Assembly: GCA_963760415.1 (NCBI GenBank)
Contig: CAVXDA010000015.1
Coordinates: 168,184 to 232,183, forward strand
From: an uncultured Acidobacteriaceae bacterium
Lineage (GTDB): Bacteria; Acidobacteriota; Terriglobia; Terriglobales; Acidobacteriaceae
DNA: 64,000 bases
Reading direction: 5' to 3'
In this document: positions 1,258 to 64,000 of the stretch, in pieces
How positions within the stretch are numbered: position 1 is the stretch's first letter
How the letters are laid out: every line of letters starts with the position of its first letter
Program-made: the position numbers and the translations under genes
Notes under the pieces: model-generated
Database searches by the model: none
Told to the model about the DNA's origin: nothing
The model's input: the letters and a program-made list of their open reading frames with translations, nothing else

Positions 1258-1370
1258 GTGTCGTCCCTGCCGGGACTCGGGTTTCGGTCCGACTTTTCCC
1301 AGCGCTCGCGCGCTGGGCTAAACTGAGTCGCCCCTGCGGGGCTGGTTTTTCGGGGTTCGTTCAGAATCGC
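1258..1370. repeat. Intergenic REP/MITE-like element (family A). A second copy lies inside rsmE at 2514-2605 in the opposite orientation.
   Basis: The reverse complement reads ...ccagccccgcaggggcg...gtttagcccagcgcgcgagcgctggg...gtcggaccgaaacccgagtcccggcagggacgac. It aligns with 2514-2605, and the internal hairpin arms differ in a compensatory way (cagcgc/gcgctg versus ccgggc/gcccgg). Confidence 0.55.
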
Positions 1371-19244: not shown

Positions 19245-19321
19245 GCGCCCTTAGCTCAGCTGGATAGAGCGTCTGGCTACGAACCAGAAGGTCGGGAGTT
19301 CGAATCTCTCAGGGCGCGCCA
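19245..19321 (+). tRNA. tRNA-Arg (anticodon ACG)
   Basis: Manual cloverleaf: acceptor gcgccct/agggcgc, D arm gctc-agctggat-agagc, anticodon stem tctgg/ccaga with loop ctACGaa, T arm gggag-ttcgaat-ctctc, discriminator g, and an encoded CCA. Confidence 0.93.
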
Positions 19322-28012: not shown

Positions 28013-29506
28013 CTACACGGGCAAGGTGAAGTGAAACACCGAGCCGCTGCCGAGCTGCGATGTGACTCCGATGCTCCCGCCGTGCGCCTCGACAATCGCT
28101 TTCGCGATGGCCAACCCCATGCCAGTGCCCTGAACGCGGTAGCGCTGATCGCGCCCGCGGTAGAACTTTTCGAAGATGAGCGACTGCTCCAGGTCGTCAA
28201 TTCCTGGCCCGCGATCGGCGACGCTGAGGCAAACCCCTTTCCCCGCCGGCTCTGCAGCTGATTGTGATCGGCGTATCGGGCGGCGAATACTTCGCAGCGT
28301 TCTCCAGCAACTGCACCAGCACCTCGGCGATCCGGTCCAGGTCAACCCGGACCGGCGGCAAGCTCTCGGGAATTTGCACTTTGACCTCGCGGCCCGCAAG
28401 CACCTGCTTCGACTTTTCCAGCGCGGCTTGCAACCACCTCGCGGACGGGATGCATCTCGCGGCGTAACTCCACTTGCTGCGCATCGAGCTGCGCCATCTC
28501 CGCCGCCTCGCCCACCAGACGATTGAGCCTGTCGGTCTCTTCGTTGATCACGGTGAGCAAGTCTTTTCTCTCATCAGTCCCGATTTCCGGCGTTGACAGC
28601 AGCGTCGTGACCGAGAGCTTGATGGCAGTGAGCGGCGTGCGAAACTCGTGGGTGACGCTATCCAGCAGCGCGGAGCGCAGCTTCTCGCTCTCTCTCGTCG
28701 CTTCGGCGCGGGTGAGGGTCTCGACCGCGCCCGCACGCTCAATGGAGATTGCGATCAGGCTGCCGACCGCTTCCAGGGTCTCGCGCGAGAGGACCGCGCC
28801 TTCCAGTCCCAGGCTGCCCACCGGCCGGACGCCGATGCGCAGAGGAACGAAGCACAACTGGTTCGCTTCATCCACCACCAGCTCGCCCCGCCCGCTGACC
28901 GACTCCAGTTGCTCTTCGCTGAGTTCAGGATGGTCAGCCCCGGTGCGGTACACCTCCTTGCGTTTGGGTAAATACATCGCCGCCGCTTTCAGTCCGAAGG
29001 CATCGCGCACATAGTGGGGAATGGAGTTCAGCAACTCCATCACGTTTTCCGTGGCCAGCAACTGCTGACTCAGGGCATAGAGGCGCTCCACTTCTTTGCG
29101 GCGGCGGGTGGCATTCAGCGCTTCACGGCGCGCGCGTTCGGAGAGCCGGCTGGCCAGAATCGCGCTGATCAGGAAAGCCAGCAGCGCAATCCAGTTCTGC
29201 GGGTCGGCCACGGTGAAGGTGTGGACCGGCGGGAGAAAGAAATAGTTGAACGCCAGCGTCGCTACCACCGCGGTCGTGGTGGCTACCGTCAGTCCCCACC
29301 GGCTGGCTACGCCCAGCACCACCAGCAAGAAACGTAAGCGCGACCGTGGTGGGATTCACATTCGGCAGACGACGGTAGACAATCACCACGACGGCAATCG
29401 TTCCCAATGCGACGGCGTAGTGGTACAGCGCGGCTTTCAAGCGCTGCGGAGAGACGGCAAAGGAACGCCGCGCCGTCTGCCCGGCCTCAGGAGGTTGTGA
29501 ATTCAC
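28013..29506 (-). pseudogene. kdpD: KdpD C-terminal half as a separate gene (DUF4118-type 4-TM block, GAF-like region, HisKA, HATPase); about 3 frameshifts
   Basis: GTG start at 29506. TM helices read LYHYAVALGTIAVVVIVY, LVVLGVASRWG, AVVATLAFNYFFLPP and NWIALLAFLISAILASRL. The H-box is LLDSVTHEFRTPLTAI and the G-box is GTGMGLAIAKAIVEAHGGSIGV. The fragments are 28013-28399, 28197-28484, 28342-29328 and 29329-29506. Confidence 0.8.
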
Positions 29507-29560
29507 GCGATGATTGTATCGAATCGACTTTTCAACGCCGCTGCCGCAGAATAGGGGCGC

Positions 29561-30700
29561 ATGCAGAAGACTCCTGAGCAATGGCTGGAAGAGACCACTC
29601 CGGTCAAAAAGAGTGGTGTTTTCAAGCTGTTTCTCGGATACGCGCCCGGCGTCGGCAAGACCTATGCGATGTTGAGCGAGGCCATTCGGCGCCAGAGCCG
29701 CGGCGAAGATGTGGTGATCGGCGTGGTCGAGACCCACGGCCGCAAGGCGACCCAGGAGCTGGCTGCGCGGCTGGAAACGGTGCCGCGCCGGAAGATTGAC
29801 TACAAGGGCACGCTCTTTGAAGAGATGGACGTGGATGCGATTCTCGCGCGCCATCCCCAGGTCGCTCTGGTGGACGAACTGGCGCACACCAACATCGACG
29901 GCAGCAAGCACCACAAGCGCTACGAAGATGTCTTCGAATTGCTCGACAACAACATCGACGTAGTTTCCACCATGAACGTCCAGCATCTGGAAAGCGTGAC
30001 CCCGATGGTGCACAAGATCACCGGGGTGCTGGTGCGCGAGACGGTGCCTGACTGGGTCTTGAAGCGCGTGGACGAAATCGTGTTGTCCGACGTCACGCCT
30101 GAGGCGCTGCAGACCCGCATGCGCCGCGGCGACATCTATCCCATGGAGCGCGTGGATCGCGCCCTCGGCAACTTCTTCCGTCCCAGTAATCTGATTGCCT
30201 TGCGCGAAGTCGCGCTCCGCCATGTGGCGCAGGTGGTGGACCGCAGCCTGGAACCGTACCTCGAGTCGGAGGCGGCGCCGGGCCGCGACCTGAACGTGGC
30301 GGAGCGGATCGCCGTCGGCGTCAGCTCCAATCCGGCGGCGCAATATCTGGTGGCGCGGGCTTCTCGCATGGCGCAGGCCATCAACGGCGAACTGTTCGTG
30401 CTTTACGTCGATACCGGGGCCGATGACGGCGATCCGGAGCGGAAGCGTTCGCTGCAGGCGAATCTGCATTTCGCGGAAAACCTGGGAGCGAAGATCGTGC
30501 GGCTCAAGGGCAAGGACGTTGCCCAGGCCATGGCCGAGTTCGTTCGCGAGAAGCACATCACGCAGATGATCTTCGGGCATTCCGCAACCAGCGGCTGGCG
30601 CAAGTATCTGTTCATGTCGGCCGTGCATCGCTTCCTGCGCGACGCGCCGGCGGTGGATGTTCATATCGTGAAACAGCAGCCAATTAAAGTCCAGTTGTGA
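29561..30700 (+). CDS. kdpD: KdpD N-terminal sensor domain plus Usp domain as a stand-alone protein
   Basis: FKLFLGYAPGVGKTYAML (Walker A-like), then VIGVVETHGR...VDELAHTN...HKRYEDV...NIDVVSTMNVQHLES, then a Usp-like C-terminus. 379 aa with no TM or kinase part. It is divergent (54 bp) from the kinase half. Confidence 0.85.
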   Translation: MQKTPEQWLEETTPVKKSGVFKLFLGYAPGVGKTYAMLSEAIRRQSRGEDVVIGVVETHGRKATQELAARLETVPRRKIDYKGTLFEEMDVDAILARHPQVALVDELAHTNIDGSKHHKRYEDVFELLDNNIDVVSTMNVQHLESVTPMVHKITGVLVRETVPDWVLKRVDEIVLSDVTPEALQTRMRRGDIYPMERVDRALGNFFRPSNLIALREVALRHVAQVVDRSLEPYLESEAAPGRDLNVAERIAVGVSSNPAAQYLVARASRMAQAINGELFVLYVDTGADDGDPERKRSLQANLHFAENLGAKIVRLKGKDVAQAMAEFVREKHITQMIFGHSATSGWRKYLFMSAVHRFLRDAPAVDVHIVKQQPIKVQL

Positions 30701-30776
30701 GTTTCAGTTTCGAATTTCGGTGGAGAGCTGGCCTCTAGCCAGCATTCGGCCCGAGAGTAAGGGGCCTACCACTGAA

Positions 30777-31472
30777 ATGCACAATCGCCCGCACATCCTG
30801 GTCGTGGACGACGAGCCGCAAATCACGCGCGTGCTGCGCACCAGCCTGAACGCGCAGGGCTACGAGATCCGCGTGGCCAACGATGGCGAAACCGCGCTCG
30901 AGATCCTGAAAGACTTTGCCCCCGACCTGGTGATTACCGACCTCGCCATGCCCAACATGAATGGCATCGAGTTGTGCCGCCAGCTGCGCAAGATTTCGCA
31001 GGTGCCGATCCTGGTGCTGTCGGTGCGCGGCGAAGAGCGCAGCAAGATCGAGGCGCTCGACTCCGGGGCCGACGACTACGTGACCAAGCCGTTCAGCACC
31101 GGCGAGCTGCTGGCGCGGATTCGCGCGGCGCTGCGGCGTTCTCCGCCCAGCACCAGCGAACCGCAAACCAAAATTGACCTGGGCGACTTCCACGTTGATC
31201 TTGACGCCCATTCCGTCGCCGTCGCCGGCAGGGAAGTGCGGCTTACCCCCAAGGAGTTCGACGTGCTGGTGTACATGGCGCAGCATCCGCGCAAAGTGCT
31301 GACCCACCGCTCCATCCTTAATGCGGTGTGGGGCAGCAACAGCGTCGAGCAAAACGAATATCTGCGCGTCTTCGTCGGCCAGTTGCGCAAGAAGCTGGAG
31401 CCCGATGCCGGCTCGCCCAAGTACATTCTGACGGAGCCGTGGGTGGGCTACCGCTTCGAGCCGGGGGACTGA
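30777..31472 (+). CDS. kdpE: OmpR-family response regulator KdpE
   Basis: ILVVDDEPQITRVLRTSLNAQGYEI...DLVITDLAMPNMNG...ILVLSVRGEERSKIEALDSGADDYVTKPF...LTPKEFDVL...YLRVFVGQLRKKLE...ILTEPWVGYRF. It follows the KdpD N-terminal gene. Confidence 0.88.
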   Translation: MHNRPHILVVDDEPQITRVLRTSLNAQGYEIRVANDGETALEILKDFAPDLVITDLAMPNMNGIELCRQLRKISQVPILVLSVRGEERSKIEALDSGADDYVTKPFSTGELLARIRAALRRSPPSTSEPQTKIDLGDFHVDLDAHSVAVAGREVRLTPKEFDVLVYMAQHPRKVLTHRSILNAVWGSNSVEQNEYLRVFVGQLRKKLEPDAGSPKYILTEPWVGYRFEPGD

Positions 31473-31621
31473 GGCAGTTTCAAGTTTCGAGTTTCCGGTT
31501 TCAAGTCTCATCGAGTTGGTGCACGGGAAACCCAACGTCGCTGGCCGTCCGCTGAGCCTCGGCTTAACCCCTCCATCCTTCTCGTAGAATCAACAACTTA
31601 GCTAACATAAAACTCGCATCT

Positions 31622-31925
31622 ATTTGAGCCGTAAGGGGTTATATGTATCCATTTGACCAGCAATGACTTAGAACGTGATTTTCACAAAACAAGTGACATA
31701 GAACTATGTATTCTATGAGTATTATGTACCTGCCCTACCCCTCCCCCCGTGCCTCTGTGGAATCAATGACTTGGCGAAAAAATCCTTGCACATGATAGAG
31801 CCGTAAGGACTTACACGTTGATGATTGATTCCAAATGAGTTAGCGTGCATTTTCCTCCAGCCCCTGCTCAACTGCTGACCGTTGGTGCCTGACAGGCAAA
31901 CCCACCCCCCCCCCTCCCCCTGTTT
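31622..31925 (-). repeat. Two tandem diverged ~130-nt repeat modules (family D), each ending in a C-rich tract. A related module lies at about 17650-17725 in the opposite orientation.
   Basis: Both modules start gagccgtaagg (31626, 31798) and end in cccctcccccc / cccacccccccccctccccc. After the second C-tract, tgtttccggcaaaatattg matches the reverse complement of caattatttgccgggaaaaag...gggggagggggtgggg at 17660-17722. Confidence 0.6.
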
Positions 31926-32068
31926 CCGGCAAAATATTGAAAGCAAAGAGACAGAAAAAGTCACTCAACGCAAGCTCTTCCCTCCAAAGGGCTTAGAGGT
32001 AAAATATTCCATCCAGGGCAGTTACGTGCCACAAACTTGGCTTGCCGGTCGAGGATTCCTGCCTTCCA

Positions 32069-32130
32069 GTCTGATAACTGACGACTGGCTACTGACGACT
32101 GCTACTGGCCACTGACCACTGTCCACTGAC
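32069..32130. repeat. Low-complexity 'ctgac(c/g)act' microsatellite-like repeat (family E). A related tract lies at 55021-55068.
   Basis: gtctgataactgacgactggctactgacgactgctactggccactgaccactgtccactgac. Its reverse complement resembles cagtagccagtggtcagtagccagtggtcagttgtcggttgccagtgcc at 55021. Confidence 0.6.
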
Positions 32131-32225
32131 TTGTCAAAGATCATCGGCCTTCGGGGCCCCCATCGAGCGCCGCTCTTGCGCTCGGTGAGGTCAACCGGGG
32201 CCGCTTCCGCCCTTACGGGACGGTG

Positions 32226-32334
32226 GAGACACTAAGCCTCACGTCGCCAGTGTAGCGCCGGGCTGGCCAAAGTCAAGTTACGAAGGTACAGGTAGGGTAA
32301 CTGTACTTTCGTAACATTTTGGGGGAAGGTAACC
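32226..32334 (-). repeat. 109-bp hairpin-containing repeat (family C), copy 2, inverted relative to 17355-17463
   Basis: The reverse complement reads ggttaccttcccccaaaatgttacgaaagtacagttaccctacctgtaccttcgtaacttgac...tacactggcgacgtgaggcttagtgtctc. Weaker similarity continues to about 32130 (gatgatctttgacaagtc versus cgtgatctttgaaaagtc at 17501). Confidence 0.8.
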
Positions 32335-32530
32335 TGCGTTCGACGGTAGGCCCCCCAGATCGATTGTGCCGTCCCTGAAGAGACTCTCCGTGATTTCCCC
32401 CGTTTACTCCGGTCTGAGCCCAAGGCTAAACGAAATCAGGACTACGCACGCGATGCAGTGTAGCGCAACTCACAGCACAAGTCGTATTCTGCCTCTGTCA
32501 ACTTGATAGCTGTGGCAGGTTGGCGGAGGC

Positions 32531-33374
32531 GTGTGGATGCGTGAATGGCTCAACAACTTGGTGGCAGACCCGTGGCTTGTTGCGACTGCGGCTTCTCAAC
32601 TATTACTTGCGTTGTTGGGGGCCATCGTAACGCTACAAGAGGATTGGGCAAAACGCCACCGATGGCTTCTATTGACAGCATTTGCCTGTGCTGGGATCCT
32701 TAGGGTTCATGGCGACCCTAAAACAAGGAATCGGTTCAGCGGCAGCTAGTACGAGTCTTGCCAATAGCCTCCATGGTTTGGGAAGAGCTACTGCCGAAAT
32801 CAGCCGGATAACTTCGCTGAACACTCAATTACAGGAACAACTATTAAAGCAGGGTGACACAATATCTGATCTAGCGAAGCAAAATATAGCAACAGCCACG
32901 GGAGGCGACAGCTTCTGCTTCGTCCGTTTCCTGTTCGAGGGTTCAACTGGGGGCATACTCCTCCTTCAGAGCGGGCGCTACCCTTTGGCCGACGTTATCA
33001 TGCGCACAATCGACGAGGACTCATTAAAGGAAGATACTCAACTGATAACCATCGGAACGCTGCCGGTACGTGGTTACAGGCACTTGCGCAAAGTCGCAAT
33101 GCCGGATGTATCAGAAAAGAGGTTTATAACCATGTTCACTGCGCGAAATGGGGCATGGGATCAATTTATATTGCTGCGCCGAGATACGAACAAGCGATGG
33201 CATTTTGCCACGCAGGTTGTAGAGAATAAGGGACAGGTAAAGTACAAGGAATTACTTCGCGAGGGCAAACACCCAATCTTTACCGCAATCGACCCTGGGT
33301 TCCCGGGAACAGTGACGGAAGCTACGTGGAGTTCGTTCAACGGGTTAGAAAGGTTTTGTCTCAATTGCAAATGA
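32531..33374 (+). pseudogene. Orphan AT-richer gene: a two-TM N-terminus, a coiled-coil-like segment and an unknown ~150-aa C-terminal domain. It is either one gene with a frameshift near 32700 or two overlapping ORFs.
   Basis: ORF 32531-32749 reads (..WLVATAASQLLLALLGAIVTL..WLLLTAFACAGIL). The TM helix continues in ORF 32682-33374 as (GFMATLKQG...SLNTQLQEQLLKQGDTISDLAKQN...). Codons such as tta, ata and aaa are frequent, and GC is visibly lower than in the neighbours. Confidence 0.5.
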
Positions 33375-33497
33375 TTCGACCATCCTCTCCAACTAATGCC
33401 TTGTATTCGAGTCGCTCAGCTTGGAGCGGTCTTAAGAGCGATTGTCATGAGGTATCACTGCGTCGCCCTGCGAACTTCCGTTCTGTCTCACGGGATG

Positions 33498-33602
33498 GGC
33501 GGGACTTCGTCGAGGTGGAGGTACTTCTGGTATTCTTCGGGGGTCAGGTTGCGAGTGACGCGAGAGCGTGCGAGAGTAAAGCAGTGCCAGAGTTGCTATC
33601 CT
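33498..33602 (-). pseudogene. Remnant 3' fragment of a second WD40-type gene (C-terminal 34 codons only)
   Basis: The minus strand reads (TAG stop)QLWHCFTLARSRVTRNLTPEEYQKYLHLDEVPPIP*. This parallels the true C-terminus of the neighbouring gene, ...LMELARQRVTAHPSDEGCKKYLGVDKCPPVP. Confidence 0.5.
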
Positions 33603-33799
33603 GCGGTGGGTGGAGCACGCCTTTCAGGCGTGCAGGACGGACTGCAACTCTTGCATCGCGCTTTAGCGCCTGAGGTAATGTTTTTCGTTACCTCAGCGGC
33701 TAAAGCCGGGTTCCAATAAGGCTGCTTTAATGCACCGCTAAAGCGGTGCTCCACCACCAGCGCTCCACTATTCTGTGCGCATGGTGCGGGCTGACTTTC

Positions 33800-36601
33800 C
33801 TACCACCAGGGGAGATTAGGAACCGGCGGGCACTTGTCCACCCCAAGATATTTCTTGCAGCCTTCGTCGGAGGGATGGGCGGTGACACGCTGCCGGGCGA
33901 GTTCCATCAGGTCGCGAATGTCCATGGCGTAGATTTGCACCGTCCCGTCCTCACTCGCCGTCGCCAGCCGCTTGCCGTCCGGGCTCCAGGCCACGCTCTA
34001 AACAGAACCGCTATGGCCGCGCAAGGTCAGCAATTCCTGGCCGCTGGCGGCATCCCACACCTTGGCCGTCTTGTCCTCACTCCCCGTCGCCAGCCGCTTG
34101 CCGTCCGGGCTCCAAGCCACGCTCCAACACAATCGCCATGGCCGCGCAAGGTCAGCAGTTCCTGGCCGCTGGCGGCATCCCACACCTTGGCCGTCTTGTC
34201 CCCACTCCCCGTCGCCAGCCGCTTGCCGTCCGGGCTCCAGGCCACGCTCGTAACCATCATCGTCGATGGCCGCGCAAGGTCAGCAGATTCCTGGCCGCTG
34301 GCGGCATCCCACACCTTGGCCGTCTCGTCCACACTCCCCGTCGCCAGCCGCTTGCCGTCCGGGCTCCAGGCCACGCTCTACAACAGCTTCGTCATGGCCG
34401 CGCAAGGTCAGCAGTTCCTGGCCGCTGGCGGCATCCCACACCTTGGCCGTCTCGTCCCAACTCCCCGTCGCCAGCCGCTTGCCGTCCGGGCTCCAGGCCA
34501 CGCTCAAAACAGAAGCACCATGGCCGCGCAAGGTCAGCAGTTCCTGGCCGCTGGCGGCATCCCACACCTTGGCCGTCTTGTCCTCACTCCCCGTCGCCAG
34601 CCGCTTGCCGTCCGGGCTCCAGGCCACGCTCAAAACAGAAGCGCCATGGCCGCGCAGGGTCAGCAGTTCCTGGCCGCTGGCGGCATCCCACACCTTGGCC
34701 GTCTTGTCCCCACTCCCCGTCGCCAGCCGCTTGCCGTCCGGGCTCCAGGCCACGCTCCAAACAGAGCCGCCATGGCCGCGCAAGGTCAGCAGTTCCTGGC
34801 CGCTGGCGGCATCCCACACCTTGGCCGTCTCGTCATCACTCGCCGTCGCCAGCCGCTTGCCGTCCGGGCTCCAGGCCACGCTCGTAACAGGGTCGCTGTG
34901 GCCGCGCAAGGTCAGCAGTTCCTGGCCGTGACGGCATCCCACACCTTGGCCGTCTCGTCAGAACTCGCTGTCGCCAGCCGCTTGCCGTCCGGGCTCCAGG
35001 CCACGCTGGTACTAACAAGGACCATGGCCGCGCAAGGTCAGCAGTTCTTGACCGCTGACAGCATCCCACACCTTCGCCGCTTGTCCACACTCGCCGTCGC
35101 CAGACCGCTTACCGTCCGGGCTCCAGGCCACGCTCACAGGTGGGATTTGTCGAGGCCCCGCAGCGTCGGCAAGTCCAAGTCACGCAAGGTCAGCAGTTCC
35201 TGGCCGCTGGCGGCATCCCACACCTTGGCCGTCTTGTCCCAGCTGCCCGTCGCCAGCCGCTTGCCGTCCGGGCTCCAGGCTACGCTGTACACAGAGCCGG
35301 CGTGGCCGCGCAGGGTCAGCAGTTCCTTTCCGCTGGCCGCGTCCCACACTTTCGCCGTCTGGTCATCACTCCCCGTCGCCAGCCGCTTGCCGTCCGGGCT
35401 CCAGGCCACGCTCGTCAACAGAGTCATTGTGGCCGCGCAGGGTCAGCACTTCCTTGCCCGTGGCCGCGTCCCACACCTTCGCCGTCTGGTCATCACTCGC
35501 CGTCGCCACGCGCCTGCCGTCGGGGCTCCAGGCCACGCTCTCAACAGCTTCGTTGTGGCCGCGCAGGGTCAGCAGTTCCTGGCCGCTGGCGGCATCCCAC
35601 ACCTTGGCCGTCTGGTCCCCACTCGCCGTCGCCAGCCGCTTGCCGTCCGGGCTCCAGGCCACGCTGTCAACGCCGTCGTCATGGCCGCGCAAGGTCAGCC
35701 TCACATGGGAGGCCATGATGGCGCGATGTAATTCGTCGTTCCGCCTCGGGAAGAACGCGTGTGGCCCCATGGCCAGGTGGCGGCCACAGCATGGGCTGCG
35801 AACAGCACCGAGAGCTCAGGATCGCTGTCCTCATTCGAGATGGAGCTTGCGACCAACTGGCGAGCGCGGGCAACGGCCCGCTGGTAGAACGCAAACCCCG
35901 CTGCAACGAGTGCCAGCAACAGCAGTATTCCCAGCGCCAGCGAGTAGCGGCGGAAGCGCTTCGCCTGCCGTGCCTCCTGCGCACTCAACTCGGTGAGGCG
36001 CCTGATTTCTCCGGCTTCCCATTCCTCACTGGCGCGGACGTACTGTTCCTGAAGCTTCGTCGGTTTGCGCCCTTTGATTGGGCCTGCCTGGTCAAGCCAT
36101 CGGACGGCTTCCTTCAACTCCATCCCACGCAGAAGGAAGCCTTCATCGTGATTCTTCGATTTCCACTCGAGTTGAACGTAGCAGGAATTGGGTGTGCTTG
36201 CGCTCCCATTCGAAGTCGGTGTCGAGGGCCTTAATCAACCGCTCGAACGTCTGCTCGAAGCCCAGATTCGGGTAATCAATCCACTGAATGTCCGCGAGTG
36301 CCGCAAGCAGTTCCTCGTCCCCAATTGAGTGATAGAGGATGGTGATAAGCCGCTTGTTGTTGGCAACGGCATGAGAGACTTCTTGCCCGCACATCCATGA
36401 CTTGACGGAATCGGGGCTGATGACGAACAGGAAGTTGTCAGCGGCCTCGATAGCCGCAAAGATCTCCGCCCGCCACTTGGCGGAGTCGGGAATGCTGCGC
36501 CAGTCAATCCAGGTGTCGCGATTCACCTTCTGAAGCGCGGCATGGATGTCGCGAGCGAATCCCTGATCTTCCCGCGCATACGAGATGAACACCTCGGCCA
36601 T
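33800..36601 (-). pseudogene. TIR - linker - single TM - 14x WD40 repeat protein, with many frameshifts inside the repeat array (as assembled)
   Basis: The N-terminal TIR reads MAEVFISYAREDQGFARDIHAALQKVNRDTWIDWRSIP...FLFVISPDSVKSWMCGQEVSHAV. Next come LEWKSKNHDEGFLLRGMELKEAVRWL and the TM helix YSLALGILLLLALVAAGFAFY. There are 14 units of type [42 protein letters not shown]. The C-terminus is ...CKKYLGVDKCPPVPNLPWW*. Confidence 0.85.
33890..35700 (-). repeat. Tandem 126-bp coding repeats (WD40 units) with very high nucleotide identity
   Basis: gccgtccgggctccaggccacgct recurs 14 times at about 126-bp spacing (about 33973, 34100, 34230, 34357, 34483, 34609, 34735, 34861, 34987, 35110, 35265, 35390, 35516, 35645). 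Long identical blocks such as ggtcagcagttcctggccgctggcggcatcccacaccttggccgtc also recur. Confidence 0.9.
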
Positions 36602-36654
36602 GGTGCGCTCCGGAGGTCGAAAAACAATCAAGCGAATCTTAGCATTCGGGGATT

Positions 36655-36960
36655 AGTGCGAGCTCCTTCGCCACGGTAAGAAAAAGCAGGTCCCTCCGCT
36701 CGGACTCGAAGTCCTCGGTCGGGATGACAGATCTTGATTAGGGAAGCGCGTCGTCGCTCGGGATGACAGTGTAAAGGAGTGAAGCTCTCGCTCGGGAATG
36801 CGCAGCGCGTCCCGCCAACAGGAATCCGGCGACTGCGTCGGAAAACCAGCCGCCTTCGCTCGGGATGACAGGTTGAGGAAATTGGCGCTGGAAGGGCGTC
36901 CTCCCGCCCGAACGCTGAACTCGAAACCTGTAACTCGACACTCGCAGCTATAATCGTTGC
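36655..36960. repeat. Cluster of family-B 'tgtcatcccgagcg' repeats plus a 'gaactcgaaacc' low-complexity tract, between the TIR gene and mtnP
   Basis: c(g/t)c(g/t)ggatgacag occurs at 36716-36730, 36755-36769 and 36856-36870, with a degenerate copy at 36789. The minus strand reads ...CHPERRR...CHPERRRASL..ICHPDRG. gaactcgaaacctgtaactcgac lies at about 36916-36938. Confidence 0.6.
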
Positions 36961-38840: not shown

Positions 38841-40524
38841 TTGAGCAACCTTTCCCAATCTGCGCACACCGATAGCCGATCCGACCCTTGGCGCCAACAG
38901 CGCCATGATGCGCGCTTCACGCTGCTGATCGGCGCGCTCTCGATCGCAGCGCTCCTTTTCTATTACGCAAAACAGCAACTCCTGCTGTACGGCGATGCGG
39001 TTGCGCACATCAACATCGCGCGCCGCGTGGTGGACAACCGCCATCCGTTGTTGTCGCTCTCGGAACTGGGAACGGTCTGGCTGCCGCTGCAACACATCGC
39101 CATGCTGCCGTTCGTGTGGAACGATGCGCTGTGGCGCAGTGGAATCGCGGGCGCCATTCCGGGCATGGTGGCGTATGTGCTCGGCACGCTCGGCATTTTC
39201 CGGCTAGTGAGTGTCCGCGCCCCGAAGATCGCCGCCTACGTTGCGGCGGCCATTTACGCGCTCAATCCCAACCTGCTCTATCTGCAGACCACCGCGATGA
39301 ACGAGCCGATTTTCCTGGCCTTCTTCATCTGGGCGCTGGTTTACCTGGATGAGTTTGTCCGGGGCTGTTTTCCGAATCCTGATTCGCGAGTCGCGCCCGC
39401 GCGAATGAAGCCCAACCGCGCGCTGGAAGCTTGCGGCATCGCCCTGGCAGGAGGAGCGTTTACCCGCTACGACGGATGGTTCGTTGCCGCTGTCGTCGGA
39501 GTCATCGTCACGTGGATCTGTTGCGGTGTGGTGGAAGCGCAGGTCAGCGACAAACGTCCAGCGGCGCGCGATGGCTGAAGTCGTTTGCGGAATTTCTGCT
39601 GCTGAATGCGCTGGTTCCGGTGTTCTGGCTGATTTACACCTACTGCATTTCTGGTTATGCGCTCGATTTCGCGAACGGCCCATACTCGGCCAAGGCAATC
39701 GCCTTGCGCAGTACCGGTCGTGGCATGCACACGTATCCCGGGCAGCACGATCTCTTCACGGCTGCGCTTTACTTCCTGAAGTCGGCCAAACTCAACCTGG
39801 GAGCGGAGTTGTTCGGGCAGGCCCTGTTTGCCATAGCCGTGGCGGGAACAGCCATTGCGATCTGGAAATTTCGCAGGTACGGCATTCTGTTACTGCTGTG
39901 GCTGCCGCTGCCGTTTTACGCGCTCTCCATCGCCTACGGCAGCGTGCCCATTTATCTGCCCGTATGGTATCCGCGCTCGTATTACAACGTGCGCTACGGT
40001 TTGGAGCTGCTTCCGGTGTTTGCGGTGTTCGTTCCTGTCTTCGCATCGTTCATCGCCGAGCACATCGGCGAGGCTGCACTGAGGAACGCGGTTTGGTGTG
40101 TGCTGATTGGGGTTATGGCGGCCAGCTACCTCTCGGCCTATCGCGACATCCCCATCACGTTGCGGGAGGCGCTGGTGAACTCACGGGGCCGGGTGGCTAT
40201 CGAGCGGGCGCTGGCCAACTATCTTGGCGAAATTCCGCGCTCAGCAACGCTGCTCATGTACACCGGAGATCATGCGGGCGCGCTGCAACTGGCAGGCATT
40301 GCACGGCGCCGGGTGATCTCTGAGTCTGAGCATCCCGACTGGGAGTGGGCGCTGCTCGATCCGGCCCATCGTGCTGACTATGCTGGTCGCGTGCCAGGGT
40401 GATCCGGTGTGGGTTGCGCTGCAGGCCGCAACACACGGAGTTGACAGAGGTGATTTCGGTCAGCGCGCCGGGACAGTCGCGCTGCACGATCTACAAGCCG
40501 CGGGCTTCAAACAGCCACCGTTGA
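38841..40524 (+). pseudogene. Large polytopic membrane protein (GT-C/ArnT-like glycosyltransferase candidate), about 3 frameshifts
   Basis: More than 10 TM helices lie across ORFs 38841-39578 and 39431-40402. The N-terminal loop reads YGDAVAHINIARRVVD. The tail, ...ADY, then a shift, then VVACQGDPVWVALQ, then a shift, then ..HTELTEVISVSAPGQSRCTIYKP*, ends at 40524. The family call is tentative. Confidence 0.5.
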
Positions 40525-61338: not shown

Positions 61339-61587
61339 GAATCGCGTACGGCGTGTAAGTTACACAATCCATTACTCCGCAAACTCGGTTGCTCTGGCAT
61401 CGAAGGAATGCATTAGAATGACTGAGGGTCCGGGGCGCGGCTATCGTGGACGAGTCCAATTCGACCGGGTCTGGTGAGGATGGCGCACCTCTCCACGACG
61501 ACCATCCCTCTGCCAAGCCGCTTCGCCGGCAGAGCGACAGGTTGCCGGACGGCGAGTCACCCCACAGCGGACAGGCCCTCTTTCTCT

Positions 61588-64000
61588 ATGTCATCCCCGG
61601 AATTTCTGACCCAGGTCCCGCCCTCCGAGGTCCTGCGTCAAGCCATCCTGCGGCACATCCGGTACACGCTCGTGCGTCCGATGTCCGAGCTGAAGGCGGC
61701 CGACTATCTGAAGCCGGTTTCCCTCGCCATCCGGGACCGCATCGTTGACCGCATGCTGGAGACCGAGTCGCGCTATCGCCACAAGGACTCCAAGCGGCTG
61801 TATTACCTCTCGATGGAATGGCTGATGGGACGCCTGCTGGGCAACAACCTGTCCAACCTGCGCCTGGAGGAGCTCTGTCGCGAGGTGCTGGCTAGCTTTG
61901 GCGTCAGCCTGGACGATGTGATGGAAAGCGAGATCGACGCGGGTCTGGGGAATGGCGGCTTGGGACGCCTGGCCGCGTGTTTTCAGGAGTCCATGGCGAC
62001 GCTCGGAATGCCGGGCTTTGGCTATGGCATCGACTACGAATTCGGACTGTTCCGGCAGGAGATCTTCAACGGCTTCCAGCGCGAGAAGCCGGACCGTTGG
62101 AAGGCCAACGGCACTCCCTTCCAGATCGAGCATCCCGAGGAAGCTGTCAGCATTCCGCTCTATGGTCGCATGGAGACCCAGAGCGACGCGGACGGAAATT
62201 CCGTTCAGGTCTGGACCAACCCCAAGATCATTCTGGGTATGCCCACGGACATGCCGGTCGTCGGCTATCTGGGTCAGACGGTGAACTGGCTGCGTTTGTT
62301 TACGGCCCGCGCCTCGGAGGACTTCGACATCGAGATCTTCAACCGGGGCGATTACATTCGCGCAGTTGAGCAGAAGATCGCCTCGGAAAACATTACCCGC
62401 GTGCTGTATCCCTCCGACTCGGTGATGAGCGGCAAAGAACTGCGCCTGGTGCAGGAGTACTTCCTGGTGGCCTGCTCCATCGGTGACCTCATGCGCCGCT
62501 TCGTCCAGCAACACAGCAACATCGAGTTGCTGCCCTTCGAAGGTCGCCATCCAGATGAACGACACTCATCCCAGCCTGGCGGTGGCTGAGTTAATGCGCG
62601 TGCTGACGGACCAGCATGGATTGTCCTGGGAGAAGGCGTGGGAAATCACCCAGCAAACCGTGGCCTACACCAATCACACCTTGCTGCCCGAGGCGCTGGA
62701 AAAATGGTCGGTCCCGCTGATGGAGAAGGTGTTGCCCCGCCACATGCAGATCATCTACACCATCAACGAGAAGTTCCTGGGCGAGGCGCAAGAAATCTAC
62801 GGACTCGACGAGGAGAGCCGGAGCAAGGTGTCGATCATCGAAGAGGGCTACGAGAAACAAGTGCGCATGGCGAACCTGTGCATTGTCGGCAGCCACTCGG
62901 TGAACGGAGTTTCCAAGCTGCACACGGAGTTACTGAAGAGCTCCTTAGTTCCTGATTTTGCAAAGATTTGGCCGGAAAAGTTCAACAATAAGACGAATGG
63001 TGTGGCGCCCCGCCGCTGGCTCCTCCTCGCCAATCCGGGGTTGACGGAGCTGATCAGCCGCACTCTCGACGAGAACAAGTGGATCACCGACCTCAATCGG
63101 CTGCGCGACCTGGAGGCATTTCTCGAGGACCAGGACTTCCGCGAAGCGTTCAAGGAGGTCAAGCGTCAGAATAAACTCAAGTTGACGGGAGTCATTCAGG
63201 ATCTTACCGGCGTGGTGGTCGATCCGGACTCGCTGTTCGATGTCCAGATCAAGCGCATCCACGAGTACAAGCGGCAGTTGCTGAACGTGATGGACATCAT
63301 CCGTGACTATCTCGGCATCGTGGAGCGCGGCGAAATGCCGGCGGTGGCGCGCACTTATGTCTTCGCGGGCAAGGCCGCGCCGGGATACTGGGCAGCCAAG
63401 CAGATCATCAAGCTCATCCACAGCGTGGCTGAGGTGGTGAACAATGATGAGCGAGTGAAGGACCTGATCAAAGTTACGTTTCTACCCGACTACCGCGTCT
63501 CGCTGGCGCAACTCATCATGCCGGCGGCCGACTTGAGCGAGCAGATATCCATGGCAGGGATGGAAGCTTCCGGCACCGGAAACATGAAGCTGGCGATGAA
63601 CGGCGCGCTTACGATCGGCACCTACGATGGCGCCAACATTGAGATTGCGGAAGAAGTCGGGGAAGACAATATCTATATCTTCGGCCTGCGGGCGGAAGAG
63701 ATTCGCGAGATGCAGCGAAAAGGCTCCTACGATCCTCGCGATCGCTATGAGAAAGATCCAGCCGTACACGAGGTGATGGACGCCCTGGCTTCCGACCGCT
63801 TCTGTCCCAATGAGCACGGACTGTTCCGCTGGATCTTCGATGAACTGGTGCATCGTGGCGACCGCTATTACCACATCGCCGATTTTCCCGCCTATGTGGA
63901 GACGCAAGCCCTTGTGGACAGCGAATATCTGGAGAGCGATCTGTGGTGCCGCAAGGCCATCTTGAATGTTGCCCGGATTGGCAAGTTCTCCGCTGACCGG
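61588..64000 (+). pseudogene. glgP: Glycogen/maltodextrin phosphorylase, with one frameshift near 62545; the 3' end lies outside the window
   Basis: LYYLSMEWLMGRLLGNNL...DAGLGNGGLGRLAACFQESMATL.., then a shift, then VAIQMNDTHPSLAVAELMR...NHTLLPEALEKW...GVSKLH...FNNKTNGVAPRRW...KRIHEYKRQ...FAGKAAPGY...EQISMAGMEASGTGNMKLAMNGALTIGTYDGANIE (PLP Lys). The frame is still open at 64000. Confidence 0.9.

Follow-up and report, generated by a model that had tools for sequence, protein, structure and literature searches.

Domain architecture of the TIR gene

The 64,000-nucleotide stretch of DNA analysed here, called the window below, belongs to contig CAVXDA010000015.1 of an uncultured Acidobacteriaceae bacterium and carries on its minus strand a gene for a protein with a TIR domain and WD40 repeats. 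Three-frame translation showed that the coding sequence, which runs from position 36601 to 33800, is spread over all three minus-strand frames. The protein obtained by stitching the pieces together is composed of a TIR domain, a helical linker, a predicted transmembrane (TM) helix, a short helical cap, 14 WD40 units and a tail, in this order:

33800..36601, minus strand: whole TIR-linker-TM-14xWD40-tail gene, from three-frame translation and stitched pieces; ~918 codons once repaired
36233..36592, minus strand: TIR domain, Pfam TIR_2 (PF13676), residues 4-123, from a profile search
36380..36382, minus strand: GAA codon for Glu74, which occupies the place of the catalytic Glu in TIR NADases, from alignment to Cat1 and AbTir
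35947..36232, minus strand: conserved helical linker (DTDFEW..HTQFLLRST/EWKSKNHDEGFLLRG..LQEQYVRASEEWEAGEI..), from conservation; includes frameshift 1
35884..35946, minus strand: predicted single TM helix YSLALGILLLLALVAAGFAFY, a hydrophobic stretch with RQAKRFRR just before it
35702..35883, minus strand: post-TM helical cap (QRAVARARQLVASSISNEDSDPELSVLFAAHAVAATWPWGHT/VLPEAE/DELHRAIMASHV), interrupted by +1 frame changes at two positions
33899..35701, minus strand: WD40 array, 14 units x 126 bp, from tandem-repeat search, anchors and Pfam
33800..33898, minus strand: most of the conserved C-terminal tail (..LMELARQRVTAHPSDEGCKKYLGVDKCPPVPNLPWW) and the stop codon; the first tail residues lie inside the WD40-array part

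A preliminary description of this DNA, made from the sequence alone, had recognised a TIR domain, and the Pfam search agreed: residues 4-123 matched positions 1-122 of the TIR_2 profile (E=1.4e-25, 90.5 bits at a cut-off of 28). In TIR NADases, the Glu of a W-x-x-x-E motif is the catalytic residue. The Glu that had been noticed at this position, Glu74 ('WMCGQEV'), aligned with the motif Glu of Cat1 ('WDEL') and AbTir ('YEL') and was invariant in family alignments of 11 and 24 sequences (A2, A3). Judged by this motif, the domain would belong to the enzymatic NADase/cyclase subset of TIR domains. For its structure, an AlphaFold model was made of the homolog P0004, which is 62% identical to the window protein. 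In this model (predicted local distance difference test score, pLDDT, 83.9; helices at residues 115-148, 160-174, and 182-256), the TIR domain is followed by two helices and then by a continuous 75-residue helix that includes the TM segment. When isolated TIR-domain chains were compared, the TIR domain of P0004 reached target-normalised TM-scores of ~0.7-0.84 with the TIR domains of Hydra TRR-2, SARM1, MyD88, AbTir, and SPARTA, and the Foldseek probability was 1.0 for TRR-2, SARM1, MyD88, and AbTir. The best structural match was the TIR domain of the Hydra Toll-related receptor. The model thus predicts the flavodoxin-like fold that is typical of TIR domains.

The other parts named in the preliminary description were found as well. 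Eight linker residues (W132, H136, T137, W146, F155, L157, G159, and W168) are invariant in the family alignment, and a search with the linker and TM fragment of the window (35764-36177) yielded 688 relatives with E<=1e-3 among 1.84 billion representatives. The hydrophobic helix corresponds to the TM segment listed above. Three approaches agreed on 14 WD40 units: Tandem Repeats Finder reported a period of 126 bp with 13.7 copies and 83% matches, 14 WSPDG anchors lie 125-129 bp apart except for a single 152-bp gap, and Pfam WD40 (PF00400) matched 14 stretches (E=6.4e-187). This number would be enough for two 7-bladed propellers. The protein ends with ..CKKYLGVDKCPPVPNLPWW, and the same tail is present in the homologs P0004 and P0011.

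The lack of a P-loop nucleoside triphosphatase (NTPase) was also confirmed. In the Pfam search, residues 1-302 matched TIR families only, and a Walker A motif between TIR domain and repeats was found in none of the 78 homologous loci described below. The P-loop NTPase which lies between effector and sensor in nucleotide-binding leucine-rich-repeat receptors (NLRs) and STAND proteins is absent; ~170 helical residues separate the TIR and WD40 parts. An NTPase hidden in the linker was ruled out by the Pfam scan, by the Walker A scan of the 78 loci, and by the homolog model. Likewise, two separate genes for the TIR and WD40 parts were ruled out: the homologs are single open reading frames (ORFs) of 917-1,346 aa, in line with the single gene assumed before, and the frame change abolishes no start or stop signal.

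Distribution of the family, sensor module and topology

With the repaired N-terminal 302 residues as query, 99 relatives were found, whose product name at NCBI is 'TIR domain-containing protein' only. P0004 and P0011 have the full N-terminus and the same tail as the window protein and only 1-2 blades. The shortness of many relatives is due to the collapse of near-identical repeats during short-read assembly. When one genome per GTDB species was scanned, 158 relatives were found; the 78 loci that were kept span Acidobacteriota, Cyanobacteria, Chloroflexota, Actinomycetota, and a few others. At ~50 of the 78 loci there is an uninterrupted ORF of 917-1,346 aa. Carriers of such an intact ORF include the cultured Baaleninema simplex PCC 7105, Nostoc sp. 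106C, and Nostoc sp. T09 as well as the complete Leptolyngbya BL-A-14 genome. All TM-bearing homologs that were scanned have WD40 propellers extending across ~620-660 residues past the TM helix. These data show conservation of the family, with intact members, across four phyla. Forms with a TM helix (L009) and without it (L005 and L012) occur together in one metagenome-assembled genome (MAG), MFD05377.bin.2.25. The tenth locus of the propeller scan, L014 (10001-13048), has no TM helix; its residues 1-195, covering the TIR domain and linker, are in frame with an entire glycogen phosphorylase (E=8e-298 for Pfam Phosphorylase), and this fusion could be a rearrangement or an assembly chimera.

The linker module follows nSTAND1 STAND NTPases in P0144 and P0157, and a TIR domain plus nSTAND1 in P0153, P0164, and P0173. 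The nSTAND1 (PF20703) proteins share with the window family the linker motif (..EW....RD.GFLLRG..L.EA..WL..), a near-identical TM helix (RQTKRFRLFAMALGGMLLLALVAAVGFALWQRA-type; e.g., RQTKRFRLFAMALGGMLLLALVAVGFALWQRA) followed by WD40 repeats predicted to form propellers, and sometimes an N-terminal TIR_2 domain. They differ in that the window family has no NTPase and its TIR domain is joined straight to the linker, so that a nucleotide-driven oligomerisation switch would be absent. The literature places nSTAND1 among the STAND NTPases of conflict systems (PMC10907252). Since NTPase-bearing nSTAND1 relatives have the helix too, it belongs to a common sensor module, and the idea of the preliminary description that a membrane anchor replaces the switch domain had to be abandoned. 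Its notion of an NLR-like protein without NTPase is supported by the occurrence of the linker-TM-WD40 module behind nSTAND1 NTPases, with or without an N-terminal TIR domain. In terms of sequence, the family thus represents an NTPase-less version of the linker-TM-WD40 chassis common to nSTAND1 proteins. Four further proteins from low-GC lineages (P0154, P0170, P0172, and P0180) contain three to five tandem units of TIR domain and linker motif, in some cases followed by a TM helix and WD40 repeats.

The orientation in the membrane was predicted from the hydrophobic stretch of 62 homologs, which is uncharged, mostly 21-28 residues long (up to 33), and preceded by an RRxR-type cluster. The number of Lys and Arg residues within 15 residues averaged 4.47 on the N-side vs. 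2.77 on the C-side, and the net charge of the N-side was more positive in 56 of the 62 homologs. Because of this charge bias and the positive-inside rule, an N-in topology is predicted, in which the TIR domain is cytoplasmic and the propellers are extracytoplasmic. Such a layout would be closer to that of a Toll-like receptor or of PknD than to that of a membrane-tethered cytosolic NLR.

Variation among the 14 WD40 units is restricted to codons 8-12 (GH-xxxVx-SVAW) and the x residues of (A/G)S-x-D-x-T, and the variable columns cluster in codons 8-12, 26, 28, and 30 of the unit. Highly repetitive (HR) WD40 proteins consist of near-identical repeats with differences at predicted top-face interaction hotspots (Hu et al., 2017; PMC5587647). 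With 83% matches and clustered variable columns, the window array would be classified as an HR WD40 sensor, and the pattern of its units suggests repeat shuffling and diversifying selection. The near-identical 42-residue units and the position of their differences at predicted top-face hotspots are shared with the sensors of fungal HET-E/NWD NLRs. Unlike the window protein, which lacks an NTPase and whose sensor is probably not cytosolic, the fungal proteins have a NACHT NTPase and are cytosolic.

Frame changes and genomic setting of the window copy

The window copy of the gene contains 13 frame changes and two further lesions:

35171..35196, minus strand: partial duplication of 26 bp (CTGCTGACCTTGCGTGACTTGGACTT) where units 4 and 5 meet; in the degenerate unit 5, GH has become GL
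33998..34000, minus strand: in-frame TAG in a hypervariable codon of unit 14 (GSV-stop-SVAW), which is TTG or TGG in other units

Three frame changes are located in unique sequence, one at the TIR/linker junction (~36178) and two, both +1 and 21 nt apart, in the post-TM cap (~35763 and ~35742). Indels occur at similar density in the unique parts (3 in ~840 nt) and in the repeats (10 in ~1,960 nt). According to the preliminary description, all breaks fall in or next to the repeats, where consensus errors are expected. Consensus error is still the likeliest cause, whereas a repeat-induced origin is only partly right, given the three changes in unique sequence, the similar indel densities, and the frameshifts in non-repeat genes described below. 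Frameshift 1 (~36178) is a +1 nt insertion, ACT[C]GAGTGG, and the inserted base is missing in four of five aligned relatives; the fifth, L018, has an extra base of its own at this position. The TIR/linker junction is a recurrent breakpoint (window ~36178, L018 ~2587-2590, L117 ~970-978). In the window and in L018 one nucleotide was gained at the identical codon boundary; the two bases differ, and each creates a palindromic hexamer (CTCGAG and CACGTG, respectively).

Other genes of the window are also broken. Relative to a Korobacteraceae relative, the DUF4118-HisKA-HATPase histidine kinase gene (28.0-29.4 kb) has three one-base insertions, its frame fragments being 85-90% identical. The gene for a PMT-like glycosyltransferase (38.8-40.5 kb; 38850-40500) has three frame shifts, and a short-chain dehydrogenase/reductase (SDR) gene (~27.2-28.0 kb, from 27190) is frameshifted. 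For these three genes, the intact orthologs in L001 and L008 served as comparison. The glycogen phosphorylase gene glgP (61426-64000, plus strand) is split by a frameshift near 62430-62586 into two ORFs matching residues 3-314 and 329-816 of muscle phosphorylase. Intact in the window are the genes for KdpD-N, KdpE, MTA phosphorylase, and PfkB and many long ORFs. Within WD40 units 7-13 of the TIR gene, one substitution at conserved columns compares with ~5 indel events, and eight of its 12 single-base events are insertions. Bacterial gene decay is deletion-biased, and substitutions outnumber indels. Proteins encoded on the contig cluster with those of 'Candidatus Korobacteraceae' MAGs, and the loci closest to the window gene come from MFD long-read MAGs. 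In the syntenic MFD MAG locus L008, kdpE and the PMT gene are split; in L012, an ArgD-like aminotransferase gene is split and the ortholog of the TIR gene is full of shifts. In short-read metagenomes, which were surveyed by a protein-guided scan, 64 of 80 family loci keep at least the first 243-303 codons in one frame, with a frame change in only one. An exact-pattern scan of metagenomes around frameshift 1 gave zero matches. Because other, non-repetitive genes are shifted too, substitutions are few, insertions are in excess, and the closest relatives stem from long-read MAGs, we consider the 13 frame changes to be probably consensus errors of a nanopore MAG.

The gene is part of an insertion with the following features:

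31470..36948, no strand: insertion of 5.5 kb that separates kdpE from the MTA phosphorylase gene (mtnP); only ~40-70 bp are found there in close Korobacteraceae contigs
32682..33374, plus strand: orphan ORF (ORFan) of 230 aa inside the insertion
33487..33562, minus strand: relic of a second, different C-terminal tail (ending ..LARSRVTRNLTPEEYQKYLHLDEVPPIP/..RVTRNLTPEEYQKYLHLDEVPPIP and a stop), ~240 bp beyond the stop of the gene
36650..36950, no strand: REP-like short repeats CGCTCGGGATGACAG, three exact copies and one degenerate copy, in the divergent promoter region of the TIR gene and mtnP

In L001-L003, kdpE is directly followed by the MTA phosphorylase gene. Homology to relatives stops at 31468/9 and restarts at 36949, and the DNA in between comprises the TIR gene, the ORFan, and ~0.9 kb of ORF-less DNA. 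The ORFan had no match in Pfam, NCBIfam or PADLOC, and among 5.8 billion proteins only itself and one partial relative were found. The relic tail shares 84-94% identity with the authentic 3′ ends of genes in L004, L005, L008, L012, and L018 and is evidence of an earlier allele replacement. The ~0.9-kb segment (31470-32386) has no ORFs of more than 80 aa, is 89-96% identical to L008 and L012, and is absent from relatives without the TIR gene. Rfam and tRNA scans of the insertion gave zero matches, and its borders lack direct repeats and att-like sites; the sole match there is an inverted one of 10 nt within intergenic repeats of the GTTTC type. The insertion is flanked by REP-like repeats at 36650-36950 and 31475-31510, with CGCTCGGGATGACAG- and GTTTCNAGTTTC-type motifs.

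At the same site, L012 has an allele without TM helix. In L008 (10001-13980), a TIR-linker part whose first 92 residues are identical to those of the window is fused to a TPR-like region, followed by a second TIR-like ORF, a remnant of the last WD40 blade with the tail, and finally an ORF whose product has a WFRGE-type (FRG-like) motif. Occupancy of this hotspot varies between strains and its alleles have been replaced, but it does not look like a multi-system defence island. Neighbours of the TIR gene in the window are kdp genes including kdpE, the ORFan, mtnP, and pfkB. KdpD is split naturally in this lineage (28019-31472; L001 6488-9931), with KdpD_N-Usp and KdpE encoded on one strand and a separate, divergent DUF4118-HisKA-HATPase gene, and relatives share this arrangement. 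Further away, the window contains an Acido-Lenti-1 small RNA (52.8 bits, 1298-1343, plus strand), which supports descent from an acidobacterium, and a tRNA-Arg(ACG) gene (19245-19321, plus strand).

Weighing of explanations and possible function

Genes for RyR-domain (PF02026) proteins were present at most 10 kb from the TIR gene in 13 of the 78 loci, from three phyla (raw count), and at several of them the RyR gene is adjacent to and co-directional with the TIR gene. These loci are L029, L037, L073 (~13.2-16.5 kb, 10.9-14.1 kb), L064, L071 (7657-9918), L052, L053, L065, L066, L072, L075, L078, and L080. The encoded proteins are of the AAA-RyR form in Actinomycetota and of the nSTAND5/AAA-RyR and TrkA_N-RyR forms in Chloroflexota; in Nostoc, a RyR-TPR-S-guanylate cyclase gene ends 83 bp upstream of the TIR gene. 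Seven proteins sampled from the RyR neighbour cluster gave no PADLOC match. According to a recent preprint, phage RyR-domain proteins bind 2′/3′ cyclic ADP-ribose (cADPR), which TIR cyclases produce, at nanomolar affinity or cleave it (10.64898/2026.05.28.727677). Taken together, the neighbours at the 13 loci and this report suggest that at least some family members may be signal generators that are read by RyR-domain proteins. A PADLOC scan of 96 neighbouring ORFs at 33 related loci (the three nearest long flanking ORFs per locus, E<=1e-10; raw count) gave scattered matches only, to a methyltransferase (MTase), Cas12f/TnpB-like, ShosA, Csx1, PsyrA, and IetA.

On balance, we lean towards the explanation that the window carries a single-gene, membrane-spanning TIR sensor of a widespread family, which is broken here mostly by consensus error. 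A number of observations weigh against this explanation, some with regard to the breaks and others with regard to topology and function. With one indel per ~215 nt, the density is 2-2.5 times that of the other broken genes (one per ~470-550 nt), single-base consensus errors do not typically take the form of a TAG or a 26-bp duplication, and short-read assemblies contain truncated or rearranged copies of the gene (L103, L117, L122) and TIR-only remnants. These points would fit a true, recently decayed pseudogene, i.e., an accessory gene that was inactivated, perhaps as its TIR effector is costly. The same holds for the three lesions in unique sequence, for the rearrangement history of the locus with the relic tail in the window and a disrupted allele in L008, and for the same-site frame change in L018, which could be an inherited lesion. 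Decay is, however, at odds with the lesions being mostly indels that left the conserved repeat columns nearly free of substitutions (1 vs. ~5 in units 7-13), with the greater number of insertions than deletions, with the frameshifts in housekeeping genes of the same window (glgP, kinase, SDR), and with the family-consensus sequence that is still encoded in every frame fragment. We therefore take a pseudogene seriously as a possibility without favouring it. The frame change at the TIR/linker junction could also be biological and uncouple the TIR domain from the sensor, either as a programmed +1 shift, as a phase-variable switch or as the footprint of a mobile element. Both the window and L018 have the insertion at the same codon boundary with different bases, the downstream frame of L018 is open and conserved over 135 codons, and in the short-read contig L117 the gene stops at the same junction and is followed by unrelated DNA. 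This idea is nevertheless highly improbable, as there is no slippery or homopolymeric motif at the site, L107, which at 88% identity is the nearest short-read relative, and L103 stay in frame across the junction, no shift is present there in 16 of the 19 nearest loci from GTDB species representatives (mostly MFD long-read MAGs), and no programme would explain the 12 further shifts in the gene.

As to topology, the N-in prediction has hydropathy and charge bias as its sole basis, and acidobacterial relatives at 60-70% identity lack the TM helix (P0006, P0008, P0012, P0015), so that the same sensor can presumably work in the cytoplasm. The preliminary description had proposed a membrane-tethered TIR domain with the helix as an anchor in place of the NTPase switch; taken as a cytosolic NLR-like sensor, the protein would have both TIR and WD40 parts in the cytoplasm. 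The close relatives without TM helix, which must keep both domains in the cytoplasm, would agree with this model, and so would the Arg residues that are also found on the C-side of the helix and the WD40 propellers of Apaf-1-like bacterial STAND proteins, which are cytosolic sensors (PMC13581612). A single-pass helix, however, puts its ends in different compartments and cannot place both flanking domains on one side, the N-side is the more positive one in 56 of 62 homologs, nearly all homologs have a classic uncharged helix of 21-28 residues with an RRxR cluster on the N-side, and the helix, which NTPase-bearing relatives have as well, does not stand in for the NTPase. The cytosolic layout is thus unlikely. 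With respect to function, clustering of all ORFs of the 78 loci revealed no family-wide partner gene, no system recurs among the PADLOC matches of the flanking ORFs at the 33 related loci, PADLOC and NCBIfam assigned no system to the TIR gene and gave only partial TIR-core matches of the ThsB (E=1.4e-8) or ThcB4 types, the 64-kb window contains no RyR gene, and in the literature we found neither a description of the TIR-TM-WD40 architecture nor experimental work on members. A non-immune receptor for envelope or cell-cell signalling, with the TIR domain as an interaction or second-messenger module in development or stress sensing, would be consistent with the sporadic PADLOC matches, the enrichment of the family in filamentous or multicellular Cyanobacteria, Chloroflexota, and Actinomycetota, the housekeeping neighbours in the window (kdp, mtnP, pfkB), and the cyclase or TrkA_N-RyR signalling proteins among some neighbours. 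We regard it as improbable, since conflict systems typically show variable presence among strains, swapped alleles, and hypervariable positions in repeats, the Glu at the catalytic position is invariant, and the nearest TIR profiles are of the Thoeris ThsB or ThcB4 types.

With Thoeris ThsB, AbTir, Cat1, and the TIR-APAZ protein of SPARTA, the window protein shares the TIR fold and the conserved Glu, and its top profile and structure matches also include SARM1. TIR NADases and cyclases are activated by self-assembly. In contrast to the window protein, ThsB, AbTir, Cat1, and SPARTA are soluble and are regulated by a partner, a nucleotide ligand, a coiled coil or an Argonaute, and none of them has a TM helix and a WD40 sensor. 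In Thoeris, the TIR gene lies beside a gene for a SLOG- or Macro-domain ThsA; no ThsA-like partner was present among the ORFs scanned with Pfam and PADLOC (~24.9-31.5 and 37.0-46.0 kb) or as the ORF of the insertion. Animal Toll-like receptors follow the same logic, in which a sensor made of repeats outside the cytoplasm is connected by one TM helix to a TIR domain in the cytoplasm, the topology being a predicted one in the case of the window protein. Their polarity is reversed relative to the window protein, whose TIR domain is N-terminal (type II orientation), and their ectodomain consists of leucine-rich repeats, whereas the sensor here is of the WD40 type. Furthermore, the TIR domain of Toll-like receptors is a scaffold, whereas that of the window protein is probably enzymatic because it has kept the Glu at the catalytic position. 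The layout predicted for the window protein is also found in actinobacterial receptor Ser/Thr kinases such as PknD, in which a cytoplasmic kinase at the N-terminus is linked by one TM helix to an extracytoplasmic beta-propeller sensor at the C-terminus. PknD differs in its output, a kinase and not a TIR domain, and in its NHL-type 6-blade propeller as opposed to two 7-bladed WD40 propellers.

If the preferred reading of a membrane-spanning TIR sensor applies, the TIR domain would be cytoplasmic and the two propellers extracytoplasmic. Binding of a ligand to the hypervariable top faces of the propellers might cluster or re-orient the long TM-containing helices and bring the TIR domains together, which is the usual way of switching on TIR NADases and cyclases. 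The assembled TIR domains would then deplete NAD+ or make cADPR-type signals, which in other lineages may be read by adjacent RyR-domain proteins. An immune or conflict role of the TIR-TM-WD40 family could be envisaged. The most far-reaching version, which we offer tentatively and consider rather doubtful as a whole, is a bacterial counterpart of Toll-like receptors, in which the hypervariable external double propeller would sense a ligand, for instance a molecule of phage, competitor or kin, and signal through the single long helix, the cytoplasmic TIR domain would make cADPR-type messengers, and adjacent RyR effectors (AAA/nSTAND5-RyR, TrkA_N-RyR, RyR-TPR-S-cyclase) would read them in several phyla. 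If true, the pathway would resemble Thoeris but span the membrane and do without an NTPase.

TIR enzymes play a central part in the immunity of bacteria, plants, and animals. To our knowledge, every characterised bacterial TIR system senses its trigger intracellularly. Direct coupling of a TIR domain to a repeat sensor in a conserved family, with no NTPase in between and probably across the membrane, would represent a sensing logic of another kind. Given the common linker-TM-WD40 chassis, sensing outside the cytoplasm may also apply to many nSTAND1 'bacterial NLRs', and the RyR neighbours provide a concrete hypothesis for the cellular readers of cADPR signals. As a practical lesson, frameshifts in long-read MAGs can give intact accessory genes the look of pseudogenes. 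The family would thus offer a testable bacterial analogue of receptor-type TIR signalling.

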